From positions 164-64,163 of the forward strand of contig DATHRM010000192.1 of the NCBI GenBank assembly GCA_035465295.1: a stretch of DNA of 64,000 nucleotides, given 5' to 3'. The DNA comes from Woeseiaceae bacterium (GTDB taxonomy: Bacteria; Pseudomonadota; Gammaproteobacteria; Steroidobacterales; Woeseiaceae). Of the stretch, positions 10,689 through 48,762 are shown one piece after another. The notes below the pieces were generated by a model, which was not told where the DNA came from, searched no databases, and saw only the letters and a list, made by a program, of their open reading frames with translations. The stretch's first letter is position 1, and each line of letters begins with the position of its first letter. A program made the translations under genes and the position numbers.

Positions 10689-11276
10689 CTAGTAGATACG
10701 GACGCCGCCGTGACGCTTGCGGCTGCGATGATCCACCCACCACAGGCCGCCGAGAAAACCCGCGATCAGGCAGACGGCAATGGCGCCGCCGACCCACGTA
10801 TACGGCAGGCTGTACTGGTAGCGCTCCGCGCGACGCTGGTATTTCGCGTTGTCCTCTTCGAGGTCGTCGAGTCGCGCCCGGGCCGCCTCGAGCTCCGATT
10901 CGAGCGTCGCGGCCTGCGATTTCAGGGAGTCGATAACCGCCGCCGGCTCGGCAAATGCCGCCTTCGCCTCCTCGAGCTCCCGGGTCAGGCGTTCGACCTC
11001 CGCCTGCGCCTGGTTGACGATCAGCTTGGCGGGCGGTTCGTCGACCACGTACGCCGCCTTGACGTAGCCCTCGGTACCGTCGGCAAGCCGGACGTGGGCG
11101 TAGAGGCGGTCCCGGGACAGGATCTCGAACGCGGTGCCGCTCTCGAGCGAGCGAAACGGCCGGTCGCTGGTGTCCTCGGCCTGGTGCAGCCCGAGCATCA
11201 ATCGGTCGGTCACGTAACCCGTCTCGGCGGCTGCCAGCACCGGCAGCAGAGCGAGCAGCCCGAACAGTAATCGCAT
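10689..11276 (-). CDS. SH3-domain protein with coiled coil and C-terminal TM anchor (YgiM/TIGR04211-like)
   Basis: Signal peptide, SH3-like segment (GYV...LRSG...GYV), a long heptad region and a C-terminal hydrophobic helix. Confidence 0.7.
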   Translation of the reverse strand: MRLLFGLLALLPVLAAAETGYVTDRLMLGLHQAEDTSDRPFRSLESGTAFEILSRDRLYAHVRLADGTEGYVKAAYVVDEPPAKLIVNQAQAEVERLTRELEEAKAAFAEPAAVIDSLKSQAATLESELEAARARLDDLEEDNAKYQRRAERYQYSLPYTWVGGAIAVCLIAGFLGGLWWVDHRSRKRHGGVRIY

Positions 11277-11335
11277 ATCTGGTTCTCCCCTTGACCGCCG
11301 CGAGTTTACTACAGCATTGTCGGAAGTCTTTACAC

Positions 11336-12757
11336 TTATTGCTCGTACAGCCAGCGCAACAGGGCCACCTGCGCCTCTTCGCCCGGCCCGCGGTGCACGT
11401 CTTCGTAGTTGTGCAGCATGACGACGGAATAACGCCGTCCCGACTTTGCCTGCAAATACCCGGCAATCGCCGCGACGTGGTCGAGCGAGCCCGTCTTCAG
11501 GTGCGCCTGCCCGGTAAGATGCTTGTCGTCAAACTTGCGCCTCAGCGTGCCGTCGAGCCCTGACACCGCCATCGAGGCGAGGTACTCGGGCATGTAAGGC
11601 TTGCGCCAGGCAAACTCCAGCAGCGCGCCGAACTCCCGTGCCGACACGCGGGCTTCCCGCGACAGGCCGGCGCCGTTGTCGAGCGTAAGCGTCGGGAACT
11701 CGATGCCGGTATCGGCGAGCCAGTTCTCGACGACCTTGCGGCCGCCACTTTCGGTACCCGGCGGCCCGAGCACCTCGGCGGACAGTGTGTACAGGATCTG
11801 TCGCGCCATCACGTTGTTGCTGTTCTTGTTGACCCGGGAGATGATCTCGGCGAGCGGCAGCGACCGGAACGAGACGATGGGTTCCACGTCTTCAGGCGCT
11901 TTGGCATTCATCCACCCGCCCCGGAACTCGCCGCCGGACTCGCGCCAGACCGACGTGAACAGGCCGTATGCAAACTCGTTGTGGCTCAGTGCGGTGCGAT
12001 CCATTGCGTAACTTTTGCAGCCCGCCGGGAAACGGCCGCTGAATATCATCTTGTCGATGGCCTCGTTCGCGGTAATGGTAATGCCCCGCTGGTAACCGCC
12101 GCAGTAGCCGCGGCGCAGCGCCAGCCGGTTTTCCACCCGCAGGTTCTCGAGCGGCGGGTCGAGCCACACGCGCACCGCGTTGCGATCATGATCGGGCTCG
12201 AACCAGTAACGCACGACCTTGAAGTTCATCAGCAAGGCATTCGGGCCGACGTTGTAGGCGCGCAGCGGCTGACGGTCGAATTCCGCGGGGTCGTGCTCCG
12301 GAACTTCGAAATAACTGTCGTCGATCAACAGGTTGCCGTCTATCTCGTGAATCCCGGCCTGCCGCACGAGTCGCAGCATCTGCCATACGCGCTCGGTAAC
12401 CAGGAACGGATCCCCGCTGCCGCGAATCAGCAGGTCGCCGTCCAGGCGGCCATCCTCGACCTCCCCGAGGGCGAAAACATCGGTGGTCCACCGGTAGTTC
12501 CGGCCAAGCGTGTCGAGGCCGACGAGTGTCGTCAGCAGCTTCATCGTCGATGCCGGATTGCGCGGCACGTCGTCCTGCCAGCTCAGCACGACCTCCCCGC
12601 TGTCGACGTCCTGGACGTAGACGCTGAGAGAATCGTGCGGCACCTTGCGGATGTCGAGGATATGGCGAACCGGCTGAGGCAGTTCTGTCTGCTCCGCGAT
12701 TGCGAGTGACACGAGGCTGCCAAACAGCAGCAAGCCGAGAATTGGCCTGTACTTCAT
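11336..12757 (-). CDS. dacB: D-alanyl-D-alanine carboxypeptidase/endopeptidase (PBP4, peptidase S13)
   Basis: PASTMKLLTT (SxxK) motif and signal peptide MKYRPILGLLLFG. I chose the internal ATG at 12757. Confidence 0.85.
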   Translation of the reverse strand: MKYRPILGLLLFGSLVSLAIAEQTELPQPVRHILDIRKVPHDSLSVYVQDVDSGEVVLSWQDDVPRNPASTMKLLTTLVGLDTLGRNYRWTTDVFALGEVEDGRLDGDLLIRGSGDPFLVTERVWQMLRLVRQAGIHEIDGNLLIDDSYFEVPEHDPAEFDRQPLRAYNVGPNALLMNFKVVRYWFEPDHDRNAVRVWLDPPLENLRVENRLALRRGYCGGYQRGITITANEAIDKMIFSGRFPAGCKSYAMDRTALSHNEFAYGLFTSVWRESGGEFRGGWMNAKAPEDVEPIVSFRSLPLAEIISRVNKNSNNVMARQILYTLSAEVLGPPGTESGGRKVVENWLADTGIEFPTLTLDNGAGLSREARVSAREFGALLEFAWRKPYMPEYLASMAVSGLDGTLRRKFDDKHLTGQAHLKTGSLDHVAAIAGYLQAKSGRRYSVVMLHNYEDVHRGPGEEAQVALLRWLYEQ

Positions 12758-12770
12758 ACGTCGTCTTTTG

Positions 12771-13463
12771 CTAGTCGAATTGTTGTTGCTGCAACGCGCG
12801 CCTGGCTGCGCGCTGCACGATCCAGATGACGGCGGCGATGGCGACGATTGCGACGGCCGCAATCCAGTAGGCACCGCTGGCCGGACGAATGTCGCCGGCG
12901 AGAATCGCGCCGAAATCATCCGCGAGGGTCCCAAGATATACGTACAGGAGCACGGCAGGCAACATACCCAGCGCGGTCGCCGCCACGAAGGTGGCCGGCC
13001 TGACGCGCGTCAGCCCGAATGCGTAGTTGAGCACGTTGAACGGCAGAACGATGGCGAAGCGCGTCAGGAAGACGACATAGAACGATTGCGCGTTGACGGC
13101 GTCGTCGAGAGCCTTGAGCCTCAGGTTGTCGCCCAGGCGTTGCTCGACCCAGGAGCGCCCCAGGGCCCGGCCCGCGAGGAATGCGCCGAAGGCGCCGCCT
13201 GTAATACCGAGAAGCGCAAAAGGCAGGCCGGGCAACAAACCGAACAGGAGCCCTCCCAGCATCATGGAAATCCAACCCGGAAAAAGCGCCACCGTCGCGA
13301 CGGTCACTGCGCCGACGTAAGCAACGGGGACGGCGACCGGGTATTGCTCGTTCAACGCGGCGAGCCGCTGCAGCCACTCGGTGACGGGCAGTGTGCGAAA
13401 CAGGATTGCAAACACCAGGATTCCCGCCACCACGAGGAGGCGATTGATCGTGGCGCGCGTCAT
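12771..13463 (-). CDS. TVP38/TMEM64 (DedA-related) membrane protein
   Basis: Multi-TM protein with ...FPGWISMMLGGLLFG...GAFLAGRALGR..., typical of the SNARE-associated family. Confidence 0.75.
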   Translation of the reverse strand: MTRATINRLLVVAGILVFAILFRTLPVTEWLQRLAALNEQYPVAVPVAYVGAVTVATVALFPGWISMMLGGLLFGLLPGLPFALLGITGGAFGAFLAGRALGRSWVEQRLGDNLRLKALDDAVNAQSFYVVFLTRFAIVLPFNVLNYAFGLTRVRPATFVAATALGMLPAVLLYVYLGTLADDFGAILAGDIRPASGAYWIAAVAIVAIAAVIWIVQRAARRALQQQQFD

Positions 13464-15271
13464 CGGCGCGGTCGCCTGCCCGGCTTGCGGATGCCAAGGG
13501 TCCGAACCCGGTCGGCAAGGGTGGTCGGCTTGATGCCCAGCAGATCGGCGGCCCCGCCAGGGCCGGAAACCCGCCAGTTCGCATGCTTCAGCGCGGCGAT
13601 CGTGTTGTTCTTCTGGAACTCGCGCATTTCCTGTTCGGTGAGAAACCCGGCATCGGCGGACGAATCGGCCGCCATGTCGGGGCCGTTCGTTGCCGCTTCG
13701 GGCAACGAGGCTTCGAGTCGCAGGACGTTGCCGCGCGACAGGATCACCGCCCGCTCTATGACGTTCTTGAGCTCGCGCACGTTGCCGGGCCAGTCATAGG
13801 CTCGCAGCTTGTTGGCCTGTCCGCGTGTCAGCGTCATGGGCTCGCGACCGAAATCCTTGCAGGTCTTGGTGAGGAACTCCTGGGCGAGTTGAATAACATC
13901 GTCGCCCCTGTCGCGCAATGGCGGCACCTCGATCGGGAACACGCTGAGCCTGTAAAACAGGTCTTCGCGGAAATGGCCGTCGACGATCTGCCGCTCGAGA
14001 TCCCGGTTCGTCGCCGCGATCACGCGGACGTCGACCGAACGCGTTACGTCGTCGCCGACGCGCTCGAATTCGCTTTCCTGCAGGACGCGCAGAAGCTTGC
14101 CCTGCAGCTCGAGCGGTATTTCGCTGACTTCGTCGAGGAATATCGTGCCGCCATCGGCCAGCTGGAAACGGCCGATGCGGTCGCGGTGCGCACCCGTGAA
14201 TGCGCCTTTCACGTGGCCGAAGAATTCGCTCTCGAACAGTTCCTTCGGAATCGATGCGCAGTTGACCTTGACGAGCGTCCCCTCGGAACGTGAACTTCGC
14301 GCGTGGATCGCGTGCGCAACCAGCTCCTTGCCGACTCCCGATTCACCCTGCAGCAGCACGGTCGCCGGTGTGCCGGCGACAGCCTCGACGCGTTTCAGCA
14401 TGCGCCGCAGCGCGGGGCTGGTGCCGACGATCCGGCCCATGTTCATCGCGACATTGACTTCTTCGCGGAGATAATCGCGCTCCTGCTCCAGTTCCTCGCG
14501 CAGCCGGGCGTTTTCTGCAAGCGTGCGGCGCAGCCGCCGTTCTGCGTGCTTGCGTTCGGTGACGTCCTTCGACGCCACGAGCAACTGGTCGACATTGCCC
14601 CGGCTGTCGCGGTGGGAGATGGACGACATGACGATATCGAGGACGCGCCCGTCCTTCGTGACCATCTGGCGGTCGACGTTGGTGAACTCACCGCGGTTGA
14701 TGGCTTCGGCAAGACGGGTACCGGAAAACCGCCGCCGGTCCGCTTCACTGTAGAAATCGGTCACCGGCCGCCCGAGTACCTCTTCGCGGCTGTAACCCAG
14801 TTTTTGCAGCCAGTGGTCGGTGACCGTCTGGATGTGCCCGTCGGCATCCAGCGTATGCAGCATCGCGGGCGTGGAGCGGTACAGATCGCGATACTTGAAC
14901 GCGGCACGGGCCTGGTCGGTAATCTCCGCGTACATCGCGATCGTGCGCAGAAACCTGCCCTGGGGATCGTATTCGATGATCGCATCACTCAGGCAGTCGA
15001 CGACTTCGCCGGCTTTGGTGACAAAGGTGACCGGCTTGCCTTCCAGTTTGCCGGTTCGCCGCAGCGCCGGGCGGAACTCGTCCTCGATGCGCCGCGCACT
15101 CTCGGCCGTAACGAATTCGAGCGGCCGCCGCCCGATCATTTCCTCGCGCGCGAAGCCCAGCCGCCGTTCGAACGCGTCATTGACGTCGAGGAATCTGCCC
15201 TCCTGGTCGATCGCCGTCGCCATGGCCGGTGCCTTGCGAAACAGCCACTGGTAGTCGTCGTTCCTGCTCAT
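13460..15271 (-). CDS. Sigma-54-dependent transcriptional activator with two PAS domains
   Basis: Two PAS-like N-terminal repeats, an AAA+ core with GESGVGKE Walker A, the GAFTGA motif, ESEFERVG, and a C-terminal Fis-type HTH. Confidence 0.9.
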
Positions 15272-15283
15272 CGCGCGAGTCTA

Positions 15284-15336
15284 TACGAAATTTCGTAATT
15301 GTCGATACGACTTTTCGTTATTTACGATTTTCCGTA
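15284..15336. promoter_or_regulatory. Three inverted-repeat sites TACG-N6-CGTA, candidate enhancer (UAS) for the adjacent activator
   Basis: TACGAAATTTCGTA (15284-15297, perfect 14-bp palindrome), TACGACTTTTCGTT (15306-15319) and TACGATTTTCCGTA (15323-15336). They lie about 50-100 bp upstream of the -24/-12 element. Confidence 0.6.
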
Positions 15337-15383
15337 ACTGCATTTATTTCACTAAGTGCCTGTCTTTAAAGCCTTTTCAAAGT

Positions 15384-15399
15384 TGGCACGACTCCTGCA
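15384..15399 (+). promoter_or_regulatory. Sigma-54 (-24/-12) promoter
   Basis: TGGCACGACTCCTGCA against the consensus TGGCACG-N4-TTGCW. The GG (15385-86) and GC (15397-98) are at canonical spacing. Confidence 0.7.
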
Positions 15400-15466
15400 A
15401 CAGGGTTTAATAATTAGACCTGTCCGGCCCGCAGGGAACCCGGCTTTACCACAAGGAGTGATGTCG

Positions 15467-15559
15467 ATGAAGGACTACAAAGAGGAGGGACTTGCGCTGG
15501 CAGGCATGCTGGTCGTGCTGCTCGGCGTGATGTTCGCAGCAGCCGCTACCGTTGCCTGA
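15467..15559 (+). CDS. 30-aa single-pass hydrophobic micro-protein (MKDYKEEGLALAGMLVVLLGVMFAAAATVA)
   Basis: AAGGAG at 15453-15458 lies 8 nt upstream of the ATG at 15467. It is the only ORF downstream of the sigma-54 promoter. An alternative ATG at 15461 is too close to the SD. Confidence 0.45.
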   Translation: MKDYKEEGLALAGMLVVLLGVMFAAAATVA

Positions 15560-15883
15560 GGCATCGGCGGCAAGAAGCGGTGCCAGCCGCCCTTGATATC
15601 GGGGCCGGCGGCCGCACATAAGTCAGGGATTGCGAGGGGTATGGCCCCCGCAATTCGAATGAACCCCCTGAGGTGGGTCGCGGCCGGGTATCTCTCCCCC
15701 TACAGCCCGGTCCGCAAGCCGCCTCGCACGATGCCGGCGGGATTGCCGGCGAAACAGGACCAGGAAGGTCCGGCGGCACCCCCCCTGCCGCTAAACCTGG
15801 GCGCCGGAGTCCGCTCCGTGTCGGATCGGCCCGCTGGATCGACTATCGAATACAGCACTCCGGCGCCTTCTTTTTACCGGATC

Positions 15884-16204
15884 TCATGGCTCTCCGCGCC
15901 CTGCCTGATCGCGATGACGTTCTGCCCGCGAGGCATGATATTTCGAGTTCTGGTGGCTGATACTCTCGCGCACCTTGCGCAGCCAGATTCGTGCCCAGGC
16001 GAACTCGGCACCAAGAATGGCCAACCCGATCGGGATGACGACGAGCCCCGGGCCCGGCGTTACGAGCATGACGATGCCGAACAGCACGACCGTCGATCCA
16101 ACCGCCAGCACGACAATGCGGCGGGCCGTCTTGTACGTGACTTTCACAGCTTCTCGAAGCACGCCGTGCTCCCTCGATTCGCCTGTGGTGAAGATTACCA
16201 CCAA
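15884..16204 (-). CDS. PGPGW-domain membrane protein
   Basis: LVTPGPGLVVIPIGLAILGAEFAWARIWL matches the PGPGW transmembrane family signature. Starts are TTG 16204 or GTG 16201. Confidence 0.7.
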   Translation of the reverse strand: MVVIFTTGESREHGVLREAVKVTYKTARRIVVLAVGSTVVLFGIVMLVTPGPGLVVIPIGLAILGAEFAWARIWLRKVRESISHQNSKYHASRAERHRDQAGRGEP

Positions 16205-16245
16205 TCGATTTCCTATAATCCGGGCGTTGCCGCAGGAGACATTGC

Positions 16246-16743
16246 ATGCTGACCCACTTCATACTGCTGCCCGGCCTTTACTTCGTATTCACGGAGGTGG
16301 ACCGGTTGCGCATCCATGCCGAGCCGGCCTTGGCCGTACTCACGGTGCAGCAGGGAGGTCGCACGCTCGTGAATATGCCGGAGCTCGAGTTCCGGCTGAG
16401 CATCTCCCCGCATTGCGCGCGAAACGGCCAGCCCGAGTCGCTGTCGATTACGATCGCGGATACGCAAAGGACCTTGCGCCGTGAGGCCCTGCAGTCCGCG
16501 ACATCGATCGAAGTTTCGATGCGCGTTTCGGCAAACCAGCTCGCGCCGTTCGCAATGCGGGGTTTCTGCGTGGACCCGGCCTCGGAAGGCCGGTCGATGC
16601 TGCTGAGAGCGCCGCTCGCCGCGCAGGCTTCGCTTCGATGCACGCGCGACGAACAACAGTCGATCGTGTTCGCGGCCGAACCGCTCGACATCAGGGTGGA
16701 CTGCTTGCGCTCCGCCGCGACGGCCGAGCCGGCGCGCGACTAG
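16246..16743 (+). CDS. Hypothetical protein
   Basis: AGGAGA lies 6 nt upstream of the ATG at 16246. 165 aa with no motif I recognise. Confidence 0.5.
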   Translation: MLTHFILLPGLYFVFTEVDRLRIHAEPALAVLTVQQGGRTLVNMPELEFRLSISPHCARNGQPESLSITIADTQRTLRREALQSATSIEVSMRVSANQLAPFAMRGFCVDPASEGRSMLLRAPLAAQASLRCTRDEQQSIVFAAEPLDIRVDCLRSAATAEPARD

Positions 16744-17648
16744 CCCGGGTCCGCGGCGAGATGCTCGCGTAGAAATTCCAGTGTGCGTTCCCACGCGTCG
16801 TCGGCATAGCCGGCATTGAAGTTGTTGCCACTCGGATTGGCAAACGCGTGGCCGGCGCCTTCGTAGACCTGGATCTCGTAATCTTTACCCAGGCGCTCCA
16901 ACGTCTCCTCGAAACGCCGCACAGACTCGAGCTTGATACCGCGGTCTTCGGACCCGAACAAACCGAGAATCGGCACCTCCAGCGCAGCAAGCCTGTCTTC
17001 GTCGTCGGTGACCTGGCCGTAGTAGATAACAGCGGCGTCGAGTTCCTCCGGAAACAGCAGCGCCGTGTTGAGCGACCAGCCGCCACCGAAGCACCAGCCG
17101 AGCGAAGCCACGCGCGGCGCGCCCGCCGTATCCGTGACGAATGCATAGGCCTGCTTGAGATTCGACCTGAGCGAGTCGCTATTCTCCACGGCCCGCAGCA
17201 TCAGCTGCCGCGCCGCCCCGGGTGTCGTCGCCACTTCGCCCCCGAAGAGATCGACCGCAAGAACGATATAGCCTTCGGCTGCAAGCCGCTCGGCCATCAC
17301 CCGGATATTGTCGTTCAGGCCCCACCATTCATGGATCATGATGACCGCCGGCAGCGGCTCGATCATGTCGGAAGGAAATGCGAAATGACCGTAGACGAGC
17401 TCGTCGTCGACTTCGGCGTAAGCGAGACGCTCTGCCGTTACCTCGCGCTGCGGTTCGACCTGCGCCGCCTTGCTCGGCTCCGCCGTATCGTCGGCGTGCT
17501 CGCGGGCCATCGCCTCGACGTTCGCGACGGCAGCCTCCTCTTCGCCCACTGCCGGACCTGTTTCCGTGCGGCCGCAGGCGGCAAGAATGCAAAAGCTGAG
17601 TAACTGGGCCGCGACGATTGCGCCGCGCCCCGGCATGCAGTAGCTCAT
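16740..17648 (-). CDS. Dienelactone hydrolase family lipoprotein
   Basis: Lipobox ILAACG after MSYCMPGRG, then IHEWWGLN and GWCFGG nucleophile-elbow motifs. I chose the internal ATG at 17648. Confidence 0.85.
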   Translation of the reverse strand: MSYCMPGRGAIVAAQLLSFCILAACGRTETGPAVGEEEAAVANVEAMAREHADDTAEPSKAAQVEPQREVTAERLAYAEVDDELVYGHFAFPSDMIEPLPAVIMIHEWWGLNDNIRVMAERLAAEGYIVLAVDLFGGEVATTPGAARQLMLRAVENSDSLRSNLKQAYAFVTDTAGAPRVASLGWCFGGGWSLNTALLFPEELDAAVIYYGQVTDDEDRLAALEVPILGLFGSEDRGIKLESVRRFEETLERLGKDYEIQVYEGAGHAFANPSGNNFNAGYADDAWERTLEFLREHLAADPG

Positions 17649-17672
17649 AGGACGATCCCGGGTATTTTCGCT

Positions 17673-17736
17673 CAGTGTAATGGAAAACCAGCGCCTGTCG
17701 AAGGACTCGCGGCGTCTTCCGGCTGCCATTACACTG
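17673..17736. repeat. Perfect 11-bp inverted repeat CAGTGTAATGG / CCATTACACTG separated by 42 nt
   Basis: Arms at 17673-17683 and 17726-17736 in the divergent hydrolase/Kef intergenic region. The spacer contains a nested CGCC...GGCG pairing. Confidence 0.6.
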
Positions 17737-17768
17737 CGGACTTCATTGGCACGGATCGCGGCATCAGC

Positions 17769-19541
17769 GTGACAATTCTCCAGGAATCCATCATCTACCT
17801 GCTTGCGGCGATCATCAGCGTGCCGATCAGCAAACGCCTGGGTTTCGGCTCCGTGCTCGGCTACCTGTGCGCCGGGATACTGATCGGACCGTTCGGCCTG
17901 GGCTTCATCCATGAGCCCGAGCATATCCTGCACTTCGCGGAACTCGGTGTCGTGTTCCTGCTGTTCATCATTGGCCTCGAACTCAAGCCGACCCGGTTAT
18001 GGGTCATGCGCAAGATGGTTTTCGGCCTGGGCACCGCACAGGTGCTGGTCAGCGCGGCGCTGATTGCGGCACTGGTGTGGCTGTACGGCCTCGAAGCCGG
18101 GACCTCGGTCGTCATCGGGCTCATCCTGGCGCTCTCGTCGACCGCCTTCGTGCTGCAGATGCTGGCGGAGAAGAAGCAGCTGAACAGCCAGTACGGCCGC
18201 GCGGCGTTCTCGATCCTGCTGCTCCAGGATCTCGCCGTCATACCGCTCATTGCGATACTGCCGCTGCTCGGTACCACGGCCGGGCTCGACAGCGGCTTCG
18301 ACACTCGAGAACTCGTGGTGATGATCGGCACGCTCGTCCTGCTGATCGTCGGCGGGCGCCTTGCCCTCAAGCCCGTCCTGAAATCGGTTGCGGCCGCAGG
18401 AATCCCGGAGCTGTTTACGGCCACCGCGTTGCTCGTCGTCATCGGCTCTGCCCTGCTCATGGAATTCGCCGGCATGTCGATGGTACTCGGCGCGTTCATC
18501 GCGGGCATGCTGCTGGCCGATTCGGAATACCGGCACCAGCTCGAAGCCGATATCGCACCATTCAAGGGCTTGCTGCTGGGGCTTTTCTTCATCGCGGTCG
18601 GTATGTCGGTCAACATCAGCCTGCTGCTGGAAGTGCCAGGCAGGATCCTGCTGTTTGTCGCCGGTCTCATGCTCTCCAAAGCCGTGGTGCTCTTCGTCCT
18701 TGCGAGGATGTTCGGCATATGCGACCGGCGCAACGCGCTGAGTCTCGCCACGGTCATGTCGCAGGGCGGGGAGTTTGCATTCGTGCTGTTCGCGCTGGCG
18801 GCGCGCGAGCGCCTCGTGCCGGCCGCCCTGATCGACGAGCTGATACTGGCCGTGGCCGTGTCGATGCTCCTGACGCCCTTCGTGTACCTGCTCAACGAGC
18901 GCTTCGGGTCGAAGCTCGGCAAGCCGGAAGCGCCCCCGTTCGACGAGATTCCCGAGGAGCATCACGACGTCATCATCGCCGGATTCGGGCGCGTCGGACA
19001 GATCGTGGGAAGGCTGCTGCAGAGCATCAACAGACCGTTTACCGCGCTCGAAATCGATTCCTCCCAGGTCGATATCGTGCGCCGTTACGGCAACAGCGTG
19101 CATTTCGGCGATGCGGCCCGGCCCGAAGTCCTGCGAGCGGCCGGTGCGGCGCACGCCAGGATACTGGTGCTGGCAACGGCCGACATGGAAACGTCGCTGC
19201 ACATCGCCGAGACGGCCAAGCGCCAGTTCCCGAACCTCGCGATAATCGCACGCGCGCACAACCGCCGGCATGCACACAAGCTCATGGACGTCGGCGTGGA
19301 CAAGATCTTTCGCGACACGTTGTTGTCGAGTCTCGCGATGGGCGAAAGCGTCCTTGAAAAACTCGGGTTCGACGAAACTGACGTGCGCCGCGTATCCGGC
19401 GTGTTCCGTGATGCCGACGAAAAGCTGCTCATCGAGCAATACGCGATGCACGAATCCGAGGAAAAGCTGATCCAGTCGGCAAAAGACGCGGCCCGGGAAC
19501 TGGAGGCGATTCTCGAGCAGGACCTGCGGCGGCAAGGCTGA
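17769..19541 (+). CDS. Glutathione-regulated K+ efflux / CPA2 cation:proton antiporter (KefB/KefC-like) with RCK domain
   Basis: N-terminus ...VPISKRLGFGSVLGYLCAGILIGPFGLGFI, multi-TM core, C-terminal VIIAGFGRVGQ Rossmann (TrkA-N). GTG start. Confidence 0.9.
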   Translation: MTILQESIIYLLAAIISVPISKRLGFGSVLGYLCAGILIGPFGLGFIHEPEHILHFAELGVVFLLFIIGLELKPTRLWVMRKMVFGLGTAQVLVSAALIAALVWLYGLEAGTSVVIGLILALSSTAFVLQMLAEKKQLNSQYGRAAFSILLLQDLAVIPLIAILPLLGTTAGLDSGFDTRELVVMIGTLVLLIVGGRLALKPVLKSVAAAGIPELFTATALLVVIGSALLMEFAGMSMVLGAFIAGMLLADSEYRHQLEADIAPFKGLLLGLFFIAVGMSVNISLLLEVPGRILLFVAGLMLSKAVVLFVLARMFGICDRRNALSLATVMSQGGEFAFVLFALAARERLVPAALIDELILAVAVSMLLTPFVYLLNERFGSKLGKPEAPPFDEIPEEHHDVIIAGFGRVGQIVGRLLQSINRPFTALEIDSSQVDIVRRYGNSVHFGDAARPEVLRAAGAAHARILVLATADMETSLHIAETAKRQFPNLAIIARAHNRRHAHKLMDVGVDKIFRDTLLSSLAMGESVLEKLGFDETDVRRVSGVFRDADEKLLIEQYAMHESEEKLIQSAKDAARELEAILEQDLRRQG

Positions 19542-40536: not shown

Positions 40537-40780
40537 GGAAATACCCTCGTTCATTATCTGCCCGATGCCACGGACTCGATGTTCTTTATTCGACGGGATG
40601 CCATCGAATGATGGTAGCCCCACCAGGGCTTGTCAAACGTCCCGGGCACATAGCATCCGGCTGCCCGTAGCGGGGTCACGGTAGCACGGTCGCGGTTGTC
40701 AATTTGACAATAAGTTAGGGGGTGCACCGCACTCGTTGACAGCTTTCCGGATCGCGTGCGACGATGCATATTCGTTTGAC

Positions 40781-40854
40781 AAAGGCACACCTGGTGAAAG
40801 CCAGGGCCGCAAAGCTTCCGGTCTACGGGTAAACCCCAGGACAGCGGGGCCGCC
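40781..40854 (+). promoter_or_regulatory. Candidate c-di-GMP-I (GEMM-I-like) riboswitch aptamer
   Basis: AAAGGCACA-CCTGGT-GAAA-GCCAGG-GCCGCAAAGCTTCCGGTCT-ACGGG-TAAA-CCCC-AGGACAGCGGGGCCGCC. It forms two adjacent hairpins, the first with a GAAA tetraloop. The junction strings resemble my recollection of the Vc2 aptamer (GGGCAAACC...GAAA...GACGCAAAGCCUCCGG...GGUAGCGGGGUUACC). No covariance-model search was run. Confidence 0.55.
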
Positions 40855-40956
40855 AATACGAGATCCGTTTCGCTTTCGCGATTCTCGCCGCCTGGTGATC
40901 CCACGATCCGCGCTGCCGTGTCTTTGGCATTCGACACTGTTTTGCCGGAGACGACT

Positions 40957-47616: not shown

Positions 47617-47657
47617 TTGCGTTATACTAATATAGTGTTATACTTCACTATAACACT
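47617..47657 (+). promoter_or_regulatory. Promoter/operator candidate for the second efflux operon
   Basis: TTGCGT (47617-22), direct repeat GTTATACT x2 (47621-28, 47637-44; the second supplies a TATACT -10), and perfect inverted repeat AGTGTTATA-cttcac-TATAACACT (47634-42 / 47649-57). Confidence 0.45.
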
Positions 47658-47670
47658 GACACTGAAATCG

Positions 47671-48762
47671 ATGACAACGATAATGAACTTCAGACACGTC
47701 ACAATCGCCACGCTGATGGTCTCACTCACGGCCGCACTGGCGTCCGGCTGCGGAGTGGGCGAAGCCAGCGTCGCCCCGGATGCCGAGATCCAGGCGGCAA
47801 CGCCGATCCCGGTGGAAACCGCCCTGCCGTCGCGAACCGATATTCTCGCGACCTATGAAGCAACGACCACGATTGCCTCCGATACCGATGCGCCCGTCGT
47901 GGCGAAAGTCGGCGGCGAAGTGGTCCGCCTGCTGGTGGAGGAAGGCGACCGTGTGACGAGCGGCCAGGTGCTGGCCGAACTCGACGGCGAACGGCTGCGC
48001 CTCGAGATGCTGTCGGCGAAAGCGAATCTCGACCAGGTGCGCAGCGAATACGCACGCTACACCGACCTGGCAGCCCGCGGCCTGGTCAGCGAGGCGATGT
48101 TCGAAGGCCTGAAATACGACCTCGAAGCCCTCGAGGCGACCTACGAACTTGCACGTCTCAACTTCGAGTATTCGAAAATCCGCGCTCCCATCGACGGTGT
48201 CGTTTCGTCGCGGGACATCAAACTGGGTCAAAGTGTGAATGCGTCCGACGTGACGTTCCGCATTACGGATACGAGCGAGCTGCTCGCCTATTTGCAGATA
48301 CCGCAGGCGGAGCTCGCCAAGTTTTCGGCCGGACAGGCTGCAACCCTGACCGTCGACGCTAATCCGAACGCGACGTACACCGCTACGATCGCGCGCATCA
48401 GCCCGACCATCGACGTGCGCAACGGGACGTTCCGCGCCACCGCATTCATCGACAACGGATCCGGCGAGCTCGCCCCCGGCATGTTTGCCCGTTTTTCAGT
48501 CGCGTACGAGCGGCACGCCGACGCACTCGTGATCCCGCGCGCAGCGCTCGTCGAGGAAGACGATCAGACCTCCGTCTACGTTGTGGCAGATGGCGAAGTG
48601 AACCGGCGGACGATCCAGGTTGGAATCGAGTCGGGCAATGTCGTCGAGGTGCTCGGCGGACTGAACGGCGACGAAGAGGTCGTCGTTACGGGACAGTCGA
48701 GCCTTCGCGACGGCAGCAAGGTACTTGCCAGCAACAACCCTCGCCCCAGCTACGCAGGCTGA
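47671..48762 (+). CDS. RND efflux periplasmic adaptor (MFP), lipoprotein, adaptor 2a
   Basis: Lipobox LASGCG. VAKVGGEVVRLLVEEGDRVTSGQVLAELD...IRAPIDGVVSSR. I chose the ATG at 47671. Confidence 0.88.
   Translation: MTTIMNFRHVTIATLMVSLTAALASGCGVGEASVAPDAEIQAATPIPVETALPSRTDILATYEATTTIASDTDAPVVAKVGGEVVRLLVEEGDRVTSGQVLAELDGERLRLEMLSAKANLDQVRSEYARYTDLAARGLVSEAMFEGLKYDLEALEATYELARLNFEYSKIRAPIDGVVSSRDIKLGQSVNASDVTFRITDTSELLAYLQIPQAELAKFSAGQAATLTVDANPNATYTATIARISPTIDVRNGTFRATAFIDNGSGELAPGMFARFSVAYERHADALVIPRAALVEEDDQTSVYVVADGEVNRRTIQVGIESGNVVEVLGGLNGDEEVVVTGQSSLRDGSKVLASNNPRPSYAG

Follow-up and report, generated by a model that had tools for sequence, protein, structure and literature searches.

A predicted sigma-54-dependent transcript in Woeseiaceae with a membrane micro-ORF and a conserved, C-rich-loop small RNA

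What does a bacterial enhancer-binding protein control when a 30-codon open reading frame (ORF) and a GC-rich tail are all that lie downstream of the promoter facing its gene? The question is raised by a 64,000-nucleotide stretch of a Woeseiaceae bacterium (contig DATHRM010000192.1; hereafter the window, whose positions are used throughout), in which the activator gene is divergent from the region 15272-15883. An earlier note on this DNA had listed an activator gene, three palindromic sites, a -24/-12 element, the arrangement AAGGAG-N8-ATG, several hairpins (including those at 15629-54, 15733-50, and 15757-71), and a convergent PGPGW gene, and all of these were found where the note had placed them. 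We consider it reasonably probable, from sequence comparison, that a transcript dependent on sigma-54 and the enhancer-binding protein gives rise to a small membrane peptide and to a 3'-end-derived small RNA (sRNA), whose anti-Shine-Dalgarno-like loops would pair with G-rich ribosome-binding sites.

Promoter, enhancer sites, and activator

The elements that precede the micro-ORF are given below (strand in parentheses, with a dot where none is assigned; UAS, upstream activating sequence; offsets are relative to TGGCAC of the promoter).

15284..15297 (.): UAS1, TACGAAATTTCGTA, a perfect palindrome, at offset -100 in nearly all loci
15306..15319 (.): UAS2, TACGACTTTTCGTT, one mismatch to TACG-N6-CGTA, at conserved offset -78
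15323..15336 (.): UAS3, TACGATTTTCCGTA, at conserved offset -61
15353..15365 (.): position of an IHF-like site with consensus YAANNNNTTGATW, degenerate in the window
15384..15399 (+): sigma-54 -24/-12 promoter, TGGCACGACTCCTGCA, one mismatch to TGGCACG-N4-TTGCW
15410..15466 (+): 5' leader, in which AAGGAG (15453-58) is the Shine-Dalgarno sequence; locus L001 has AAGGAG-N8-ATG as well

A promoter scan of the window by itself was not significant (two matches versus 0.74 expected). The second one-mismatch match, TGGCAAGTACCTTGCT at 48715-48730 on the minus strand, falls within an ORF on the plus strand (47617-48762) and is probably due to chance. Because the promoter match is unremarkable in the window alone, we gathered loci that carry relatives of the activator, and conservation then settled the question. 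The set contains 43 loci with full-length activator orthologs (58-88% identity), 42 of them with upstream sequence. They derive mostly from metagenome-assembled genomes (MAGs) labeled Woeseiaceae, joined by the isolate Lentisalinibacter orientalis YNA5901, whose locus L023 has no ORF, and by a second clade labeled Chromatiaceae or Gammaproteobacteria. Paralogous loci are numbered L041-L080; L055 and L064 in that range count as orthologs.

The -24/-12 element lies about 112 nt from the activator start codon, at the identical position, in all 42 orthologous loci with upstream sequence. The palindrome trio at -100/-78/-61 is present in 37 of the 42, each site spanning 14 bp and following the consensus TACGGAATTCCGTA. 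The centers of the three sites are about -119, -97, and -80 from the predicted start, in keeping with the distance of roughly 80-150 bp at which enhancer dyads are looked for. The stretch between UAS3 and the -24/-12 element is AT rich, and an IHF-like site with no more than one mismatch precedes TGGCAC by 30-31 nt in 31 of 42 loci (chance rate, 0.75%). Between enhancer and promoter, such sites are common in sigma-54 systems but not required. With number, spacing, and position kept over about 40 loci, the comparison confirms that these promoter and enhancer features are not due to chance. The complete sigma-54 enhancer/promoter module proposed by the earlier note is supported by this comparison. 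That note had staked its proposal on the presence of the palindromes, the -24/-12 element, and the ORF in orthologous loci; the first two are there at the frequencies just given, and the ORF is missing from 10 loci. Judged from these elements, transcription would be sigma-54 dependent and would start near 15410.

The activator gene (13460..15271, minus strand, ATG at 15271) encodes a bacterial enhancer-binding protein of 603 amino acids. Pfam matches give the domain order PAS-PAS-Sigma54_activat-AAA_lid-HTH_8, with a sigma-54 interaction domain (PF00158) at an E value of 3.7e-70 and a weak match to HTH_8, the Fis-type helix-turn-helix (HTH), at an E value of 0.0049, under the curated cut-off. 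GAFTGA and Walker A/B motifs are readable in the translation, and the predicted product is a sigma-54-type AAA+ protein, as marked by GAFTGA. The NCBIfam search of this protein reached no equivalog cut-off, and an exact-protein look-up returned no record. The activator start (15271-15283, minus strand) lacks a Shine-Dalgarno sequence. A -10-like hexamer, TAGACT, was found by promoter scan at 15278..15283 on the minus strand, 6 nt before the ATG and abutting UAS1, and the arrangement TAnAnT plus 6 nt plus ATG is repeated in most orthologous loci (most of L001-L040). Because the hexamer stands so close to the ATG and adjoins UAS1 in most loci, we infer that the activator mRNA may be leaderless and that the activator may repress its own synthesis. 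At the other end of the gene, the activator stop codon is overlapped by the start of a DedA gene (13460-13463).

The structured RNA

The 3' part of the predicted transcript consists of the following elements, all on the plus strand.

15655..15877 (+): conserved sRNA module, recognized from minimum free energy (MFE) and z-score, independent folds, a covariance model (CM), and covariation
15664-68 (+): single-stranded C-run, part of the sRNA module
15670-15725 (+): P1 hairpin with loop UAUCUCUCCCCCUACAG (AUCUCUCCCCC), from the fold
15733-50 (+): P2 hairpin, GCCGGC-gggatt-GCCGGC, with a purine-rich loop at 15739-15744
15757-71 (+): P3 hairpin, GGACC-aggaa-GGTCC, with a purine-rich loop
15772-91 (+): P4 hairpin with a C7 loop, from the fold
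15799..15875 (+): intrinsic terminator, GGGCGCCGGAGU ... ACUCCGGCGCC and then UUCUUUUU; its stem covaries and encloses two hairpins, one of them the conserved UCCGUGUCGGA

When the stretch 15560-15883 was used as a BLAST query, its 3' half was matched in 21 loci, where it lies downstream of the ORF or, if there is no ORF, directly after the promoter. The fold of the module on the plus strand is more stable than all 200 of 200 shuffled sequences (z-score, -3.29; minus strand, -1.19). MFE folding of 22 loci one by one gave a common layout of a single-stranded C-run, P1-P4, a long terminator hairpin, and a U-run. Across loci, the apical loop of P1 reads (A)UCUCUCCCCC, that of P4 contains five to nine C residues, and the terminator often carries the inner UCCGUGUCGGA.

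A CM of P1-P4 (R1) found 23 matches: 22 Woeseiaceae loci, L055 among them, have one each, and the window has one at 15676-15808 (109 bits). Every match is divergent from the activator, and nine of the matched loci lie outside the seed. The rest of the 64-kb window and the paralogous loci gave no match, nor did 445 kb of unrelated GC-rich metagenomic DNA. Within the CM alignment, pairing extends to 91.8% of cells, and both sides have changed in 10 of 23 pairs, values that no shuffle among 500 reached; such an alignment leans towards the structure of its model. Sliding the partners out of register lowers the pairing to 22-49%. Covarying pairs are found in P1 (5 of 7) and P3 (2 of 5), these counts being taken from the CM alignment only, as the MAFFT alignments of P1 and P2 are inconsistent. 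The terminator stem covaries as well, as judged from a separate, independent alignment made with MAFFT. As a negative control only, metagenomes were scanned with the P3-P4 pattern GRNCCNNGANGGNYCGGCGGC, which is too loose to be specific, and among the matches listed none of 80 loci fit the CM.

Among the most constant features of this RNA are its C-runs, which make up the invariant columns of the alignment and are more conserved than any protein residue. Over 40 loci, the sense strand has 15.7 runs of at least four C residues per kb, versus 2.0 per kb in the background and 3.1 per kb for G-runs, and 38 of the 40 have at least one predicted-unpaired C-run. The predicted folds show at least two exposed C-runs in a terminator-ended RNA, the pattern by which C-rich-loop sRNAs were judged. 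The distant clade has other sequences and keeps the C-loop theme, and its ORF-less distant relatives keep C-loops without P2 and P3. A linear CCUUGA motif was also considered as a family-wide element; it is present in only 15 of 42 transcripts and hence is not general.

The RNA appears to share its terminator with the mRNA, as a 3'-untranslated-region (3'-UTR) sRNA would. No promoter-like or terminator-like site was found on the plus strand at 15560-15798, and the hairpin at 15629-54 has no T-run; in L001, its place is taken by another sequence that is still able to pair. Rfam searches of the window and 12 related loci, at both gathering and permissive thresholds, gave no family, with sX13 and CcsR1 appearing only as subthreshold matches.

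The micro-ORF and the choice of explanation

Upstream of the RNA lie two further plus-strand features, and the ORF at this position falls into length classes across the compared loci.

15467..15559 (+): micro-ORF of 30 codons encoding MKDYKEEGLALAGMLVVLLGVMFAAAATVA (ATG 15467, stop 15557-59), with a charged N-terminus and a 22-residue hydrophobic helix
15560..15654 (+): spacer that holds the hairpin 15629-54 and a possible remnant of an ORF C-terminus (15592-15620)
ORF of 86-109 codons: 19 loci
ORF of 45-55 codons: 9 loci
ORF of 30-37 codons: 4 loci (window, L001, L003, L051)
No ORF: 10 loci

The Shine-Dalgarno sequence AAGGAG ends 8 nt before the ATG of the micro-ORF. Between the window and L001, its closest relative, the ORF differs at 12 positions, 10 of them at codon position 3, with a ratio of nonsynonymous to synonymous differences per site (pN/pS) of 0.12, and in the two off-frames pN exceeds pS. 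Because of this third-position bias and low pN/pS, the micro-ORF appears to behave as a translated sequence, on a small sample of 12 differences. In the 45-codon group, pN/pS is 0.28-0.53. All Woeseiaceae versions have in common an N-terminus of basic residues, ENxLA, and a hydrophobic helix of about 22 residues, to which the long versions add about 60 further residues terminating in LDLDIRLIGPTSV. Searches of Pfam and NCBIfam with the micro-ORF and its longer relatives gave nothing above cut-offs. The long ORFs of Woeseiaceae and of the distant clade are not proven to be homologous: hhalign aligns equivalent positions, but with a probability of 15% and a P value of 0.0017.

In the spacer, a frame other than that of the micro-ORF reads LDIGAGGRT* (15592-15620, plus strand), which resembles the C-terminus LDIRLIGRT of the ~90-codon ORFs; the match alone is not significant. 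The nucleotides CTTGATATC of the spacer are common to L001, L005, and L021. The spacer reading is probably the remnant of a truncated longer ORF.

The earlier note had proposed that the local output is a transmembrane micro-ORF, a long noncoding RNA, or both. The comparison supports both parts of that proposal: the micro-ORF has a coding substitution pattern, and the tail is a structured RNA that is conserved, shows covarying pairs, and ends in a terminator of its own. The note had also called for the conservation of peptide and RNA to be compared in syntenic loci; the RNA proved constant, and the ORF varies through the length classes listed above to complete absence. Because loss of the ORF has nowhere entailed loss of the RNA, and because the C-runs are the most invariant nucleotides, we regard the sRNA as the core output of the locus. 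Across the aligned loci, it is the predicted structured RNA, not the peptide, that is the constant product. Four points are shown by the comparison of sequences: how the promoter and enhancer are arranged, how the RNA is structured, that the ORF has a coding signature, and that the RNA persists where the ORF is gone.

Based on these features, we propose the following course of events. The cytoplasmic PAS-PAS enhancer-binding protein would sense an intracellular signal, bind the three TACGGAATTCCGTA-type palindromes at 15284-15336, and activate sigma-54 RNA polymerase at TGGCAC-N5-CTGCA (15384-99), probably with the help of DNA bending by IHF. It would probably also repress its own promoter, which overlaps UAS1. 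The resulting transcript, of about 465 nt (~15410-15875), would serve as mRNA for a single-helix peptide of 30 residues that is predicted to insert into the membrane. Its 3' part (~15655-15875) would form a stable multihairpin sRNA, probably freed by endonucleolytic processing as in CcsR, GlnZ, NrsZ, and CpxQ. By analogy with sX13 and CcsR, the C-rich motifs (the single-stranded CCCCC, the P1 loop AUCUCUCCCCC, and the C7 loop of P4) would then pair with G-rich ribosome-binding regions of trans-encoded mRNAs and repress them.

Several observations weigh against this proposal. Support for P2 in the CM alignment is weak (76.7% paired), and the IHF-like copy of the window itself is degenerate, with three mismatches. 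Neither rpoN, hfq, nor csrA is present in the 64-kb window. A target search in the window gave no specific target; the best match is an ordinary strong Shine-Dalgarno sequence whose G-run is not conserved. This match precedes a gene for an SH3-domain protein (10689-11276), and we do not take that gene as a target because its site, of the GGAG type with a variable number of G residues, is a generic Shine-Dalgarno sequence across loci. A comparison of the PAS domains with solved structures yielded weak generic PAS matches (TodS, LOV) and no clue to a ligand. Finally, GGA is almost always present in the P2 loop and usually in the P3 loop, so that a protein-binding or self-masking role is possible.

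The last point leads to an alternative in which the RNA sequesters or recruits a protein, either one of the CsrA/RsmA type through the GGA loops of P2 and P3 or a C-rich-RNA-binding protein on the C-loops; in a variant of this idea, the C-loops stay covered by the purine loops until some partner frees them. Of 14 seed sequences, 13 have GGA in the P2 loop, often as AAGGAG or AAGGAU; most have AGGAA, UGGAA, or AGGAU as the P3 loop; and the hairpins are arrayed in series as in sponge RNAs. However, there are just two such GGA loops, and they are not invariant (P3 has AAGAC in L002 and AUGAA in L006 and L007), whereas the C-runs are invariant and, in the distant ORF-less relatives, outlast P2 and P3. 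We therefore think protein binding an unlikely main function. Less likely still is an arrangement whose true effector is the small protein, in the membrane or secreted, with the structured tail serving only as a stabilizing 3' UTR and terminator. The good Shine-Dalgarno sequence, the coding substitution pattern, and the retention of an 86-109-codon ORF in 19 loci would fit this view, but the 10 ORF-less loci still have the activator, enhancer, promoter, C-loop RNA, and terminator, the C-runs of the loops are more conserved than any protein residue, and P1-P4 would be superfluous for a plain terminator.

An effect in cis on the convergent PGPGW gene, with the RNA acting as an antisense or terminator element, seems very improbable. 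Synteny of PGPGW is seen in most loci, the stop codon of the gene is 8 nt past the T-run of the sRNA, and the minus strand has no T-run after its hairpin, so that transcription of PGPGW could read through into the sRNA region. The sRNA and PGPGW are not neighbors everywhere, however: in L029 and L035 they are separated by a thioredoxin gene, and several loci have no PGPGW gene nearby. Covariation by G-U pairs and strand-specific folding point to an RNA of the plus strand, and antisense action requires no C-rich loops. We reject, as next to impossible, the idea that 15560-15883 codes for protein. The region does contain three mechanical ORFs (15593-16252 and 15673-15960 on the plus strand, 15546-15779 on the minus strand), but none has a Pfam match, and two of the three extend into the opposite-strand PGPGW gene. 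They are not taken as coding because indels break their frames (one of 1 nt in the P4 C-run between the window and L001 and many that are not multiples of three in related loci) and because variation tracks base-pairing, not codons. The earlier view that nothing further codes before the PGPGW gene is consistent with these results.

Related systems, gene neighborhood, and meaning

The closest layout among known systems is that of CcaF1-CcsR, but the locus belongs to none of the CcsR, sX13, Qrr, and GlnZ groups. CcaF1-CcsR1-4 of Rhodobacter sphaeroides (the "cuckoo" RNAs) have, as predicted for this locus, an alternative-sigma transcript, a small ORF, C-rich anti-Shine-Dalgarno hairpin loops, and a rho-independent terminator, and their 3'-UTR sRNAs are processed by RNase E (PMC8034643). 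In contrast to the Woeseiaceae locus, that system has an RpoHI/HII promoter, a soluble DUF1127 RNA-binding protein, and the loop motif CCUCCUCCC in tandem repeats, and it belongs to Alphaproteobacteria. The window scored 11.9 bits with the Rfam CcsR1 model (RF02791), on the minus and thus wrong strand, versus a gathering score of 65.3. The sX13 RNA of Xanthomonas is similar in being a multihairpin RNA with four to five C residues in its apical loops, which pair with G-rich ribosome-binding-site motifs and repress mRNAs that carry them (PMC3771888). It differs in its length of about 115 nt and its three stem-loops, and the cited literature describes neither an upstream ORF nor control by sigma-54 and an enhancer-binding protein. 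Its Rfam model (RF02232) gave the window 16.2 bits (E value, 1.7) versus a gathering score of 50.

A dedicated enhancer-binding protein with an sRNA output had been called unusual, a view that has to be given up in light of LuxO/Qrr (PMC4878744), GlrR/GlmY (PMC4987338), CbrB/CrcZ (PMC6296734), NtrC/NrsZ (PMC4253122), and NtrC/GlnZ (PMC9731577), all of which involve sigma-54-dependent sRNAs. Like the first three of these, the locus appears to pair an AAA+ activator with a Fis-type HTH with upstream sites, a -24/-12 promoter, and a regulatory RNA product. LuxO, GlrR, and CbrB are receiver-domain response regulators under kinases, whereas the activator here has two PAS domains and no receiver. 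Their RNAs are also unrelated to this one in sequence and mode: Qrr depends on Hfq and a seed region, CrcZ acts as a sponge, and GlmY acts as a decoy. The proposed origin of the sRNA resembles those of GlnZ, from the glnA 3' UTR, and NrsZ, which come from the 3' end of, or are processed from, a sigma-54-dependent transcript (PMC9731577, PMC4253122), and that of CpxQ, which is cut from the 3' UTR of cpxP, the mRNA of a small envelope protein (review, PMC9438474). Unlike the Woeseiaceae RNA, these three have other parent genes (e.g., glnA and cpxP), lack arrays of C-rich loops, and are under the regulators NtrC and CpxR.

The gene order around the locus (window 10689-19541; L001-L040) is kept across two clades and comprises a Kef-type transporter, dienelactone hydrolase, a small ORF, PGPGW, the sRNA, the activator, often DedA/VTT, PBP4/DacB, and the SH3-domain protein. 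One neighboring feature borders directly on the sRNA.

15884..16204 (-): convergent PGPGW gene (Pfam PF09656)

Near the SH3-domain gene, a conserved GCTGTAGTAnACTCGCGGCGG occurs in many loci about 20-40 nt 5' of its start codon (window ~11296-11316, minus strand) and may be a promoter or an operator. Farther away in the window, at 40775-40858 on the plus strand, there is a match to the c-di-GMP-I-GGC riboswitch aptamer (RF03167; 64.3 bits versus a gathering score of 59). Outside the ortholog set, L041, from a Nitrosomonas sp. MAG with a 43%-identical activator, has a -24/-12 element and, after it, an ORF of 94 codons whose product carries a signal peptide and an EF-hand-like motif, DANNDGFLDRSEMK. 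As this different small secreted protein comes without a C-loop RNA, more distant relatives of the activator seem to drive another product.

A literature search found no description of this RNA or of sRNAs or RNA regulators of Woeseiaceae. Woeseiaceae are among the most abundant bacterial groups in marine sediments. We suggest, tentatively and as a possibility that we would not yet call probable, that the series of loci records the stepwise origin of a stand-alone sRNA gene from an mRNA. The ancestral gene would have encoded a membrane-anchored protein of about 90 residues and carried a regulatory 3' UTR; the ORF would then have been shortened (to 45-55 or 30-37 codons) or lost, depending on the lineage, with the C-loop RNA under selection. 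The helix and the sRNA of the window would be the two-armed output of one PAS-sensing activator, one arm (the peptide) acting at the membrane and the other (the RNA) on G-rich ribosome-binding sites, and the whole would represent an independently arisen gammaproteobacterial counterpart of CcaF1-CcsR.

The finding adds a new structured-RNA family that is suitable for RNA databases, and it describes a well-defined proposed circuit that runs from a sensor through an enhancer and a sigma-54 promoter to an sRNA and offers genetics clear points of attack. It also carries a warning for annotation, in that the sole target of an enhancer-binding protein can be a noncoding RNA overlooked by gene callers. 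For the family itself, the loci offer a natural series in which the coding part decays and the 3' regulatory RNA persists, which bears on the origins of sRNA genes.

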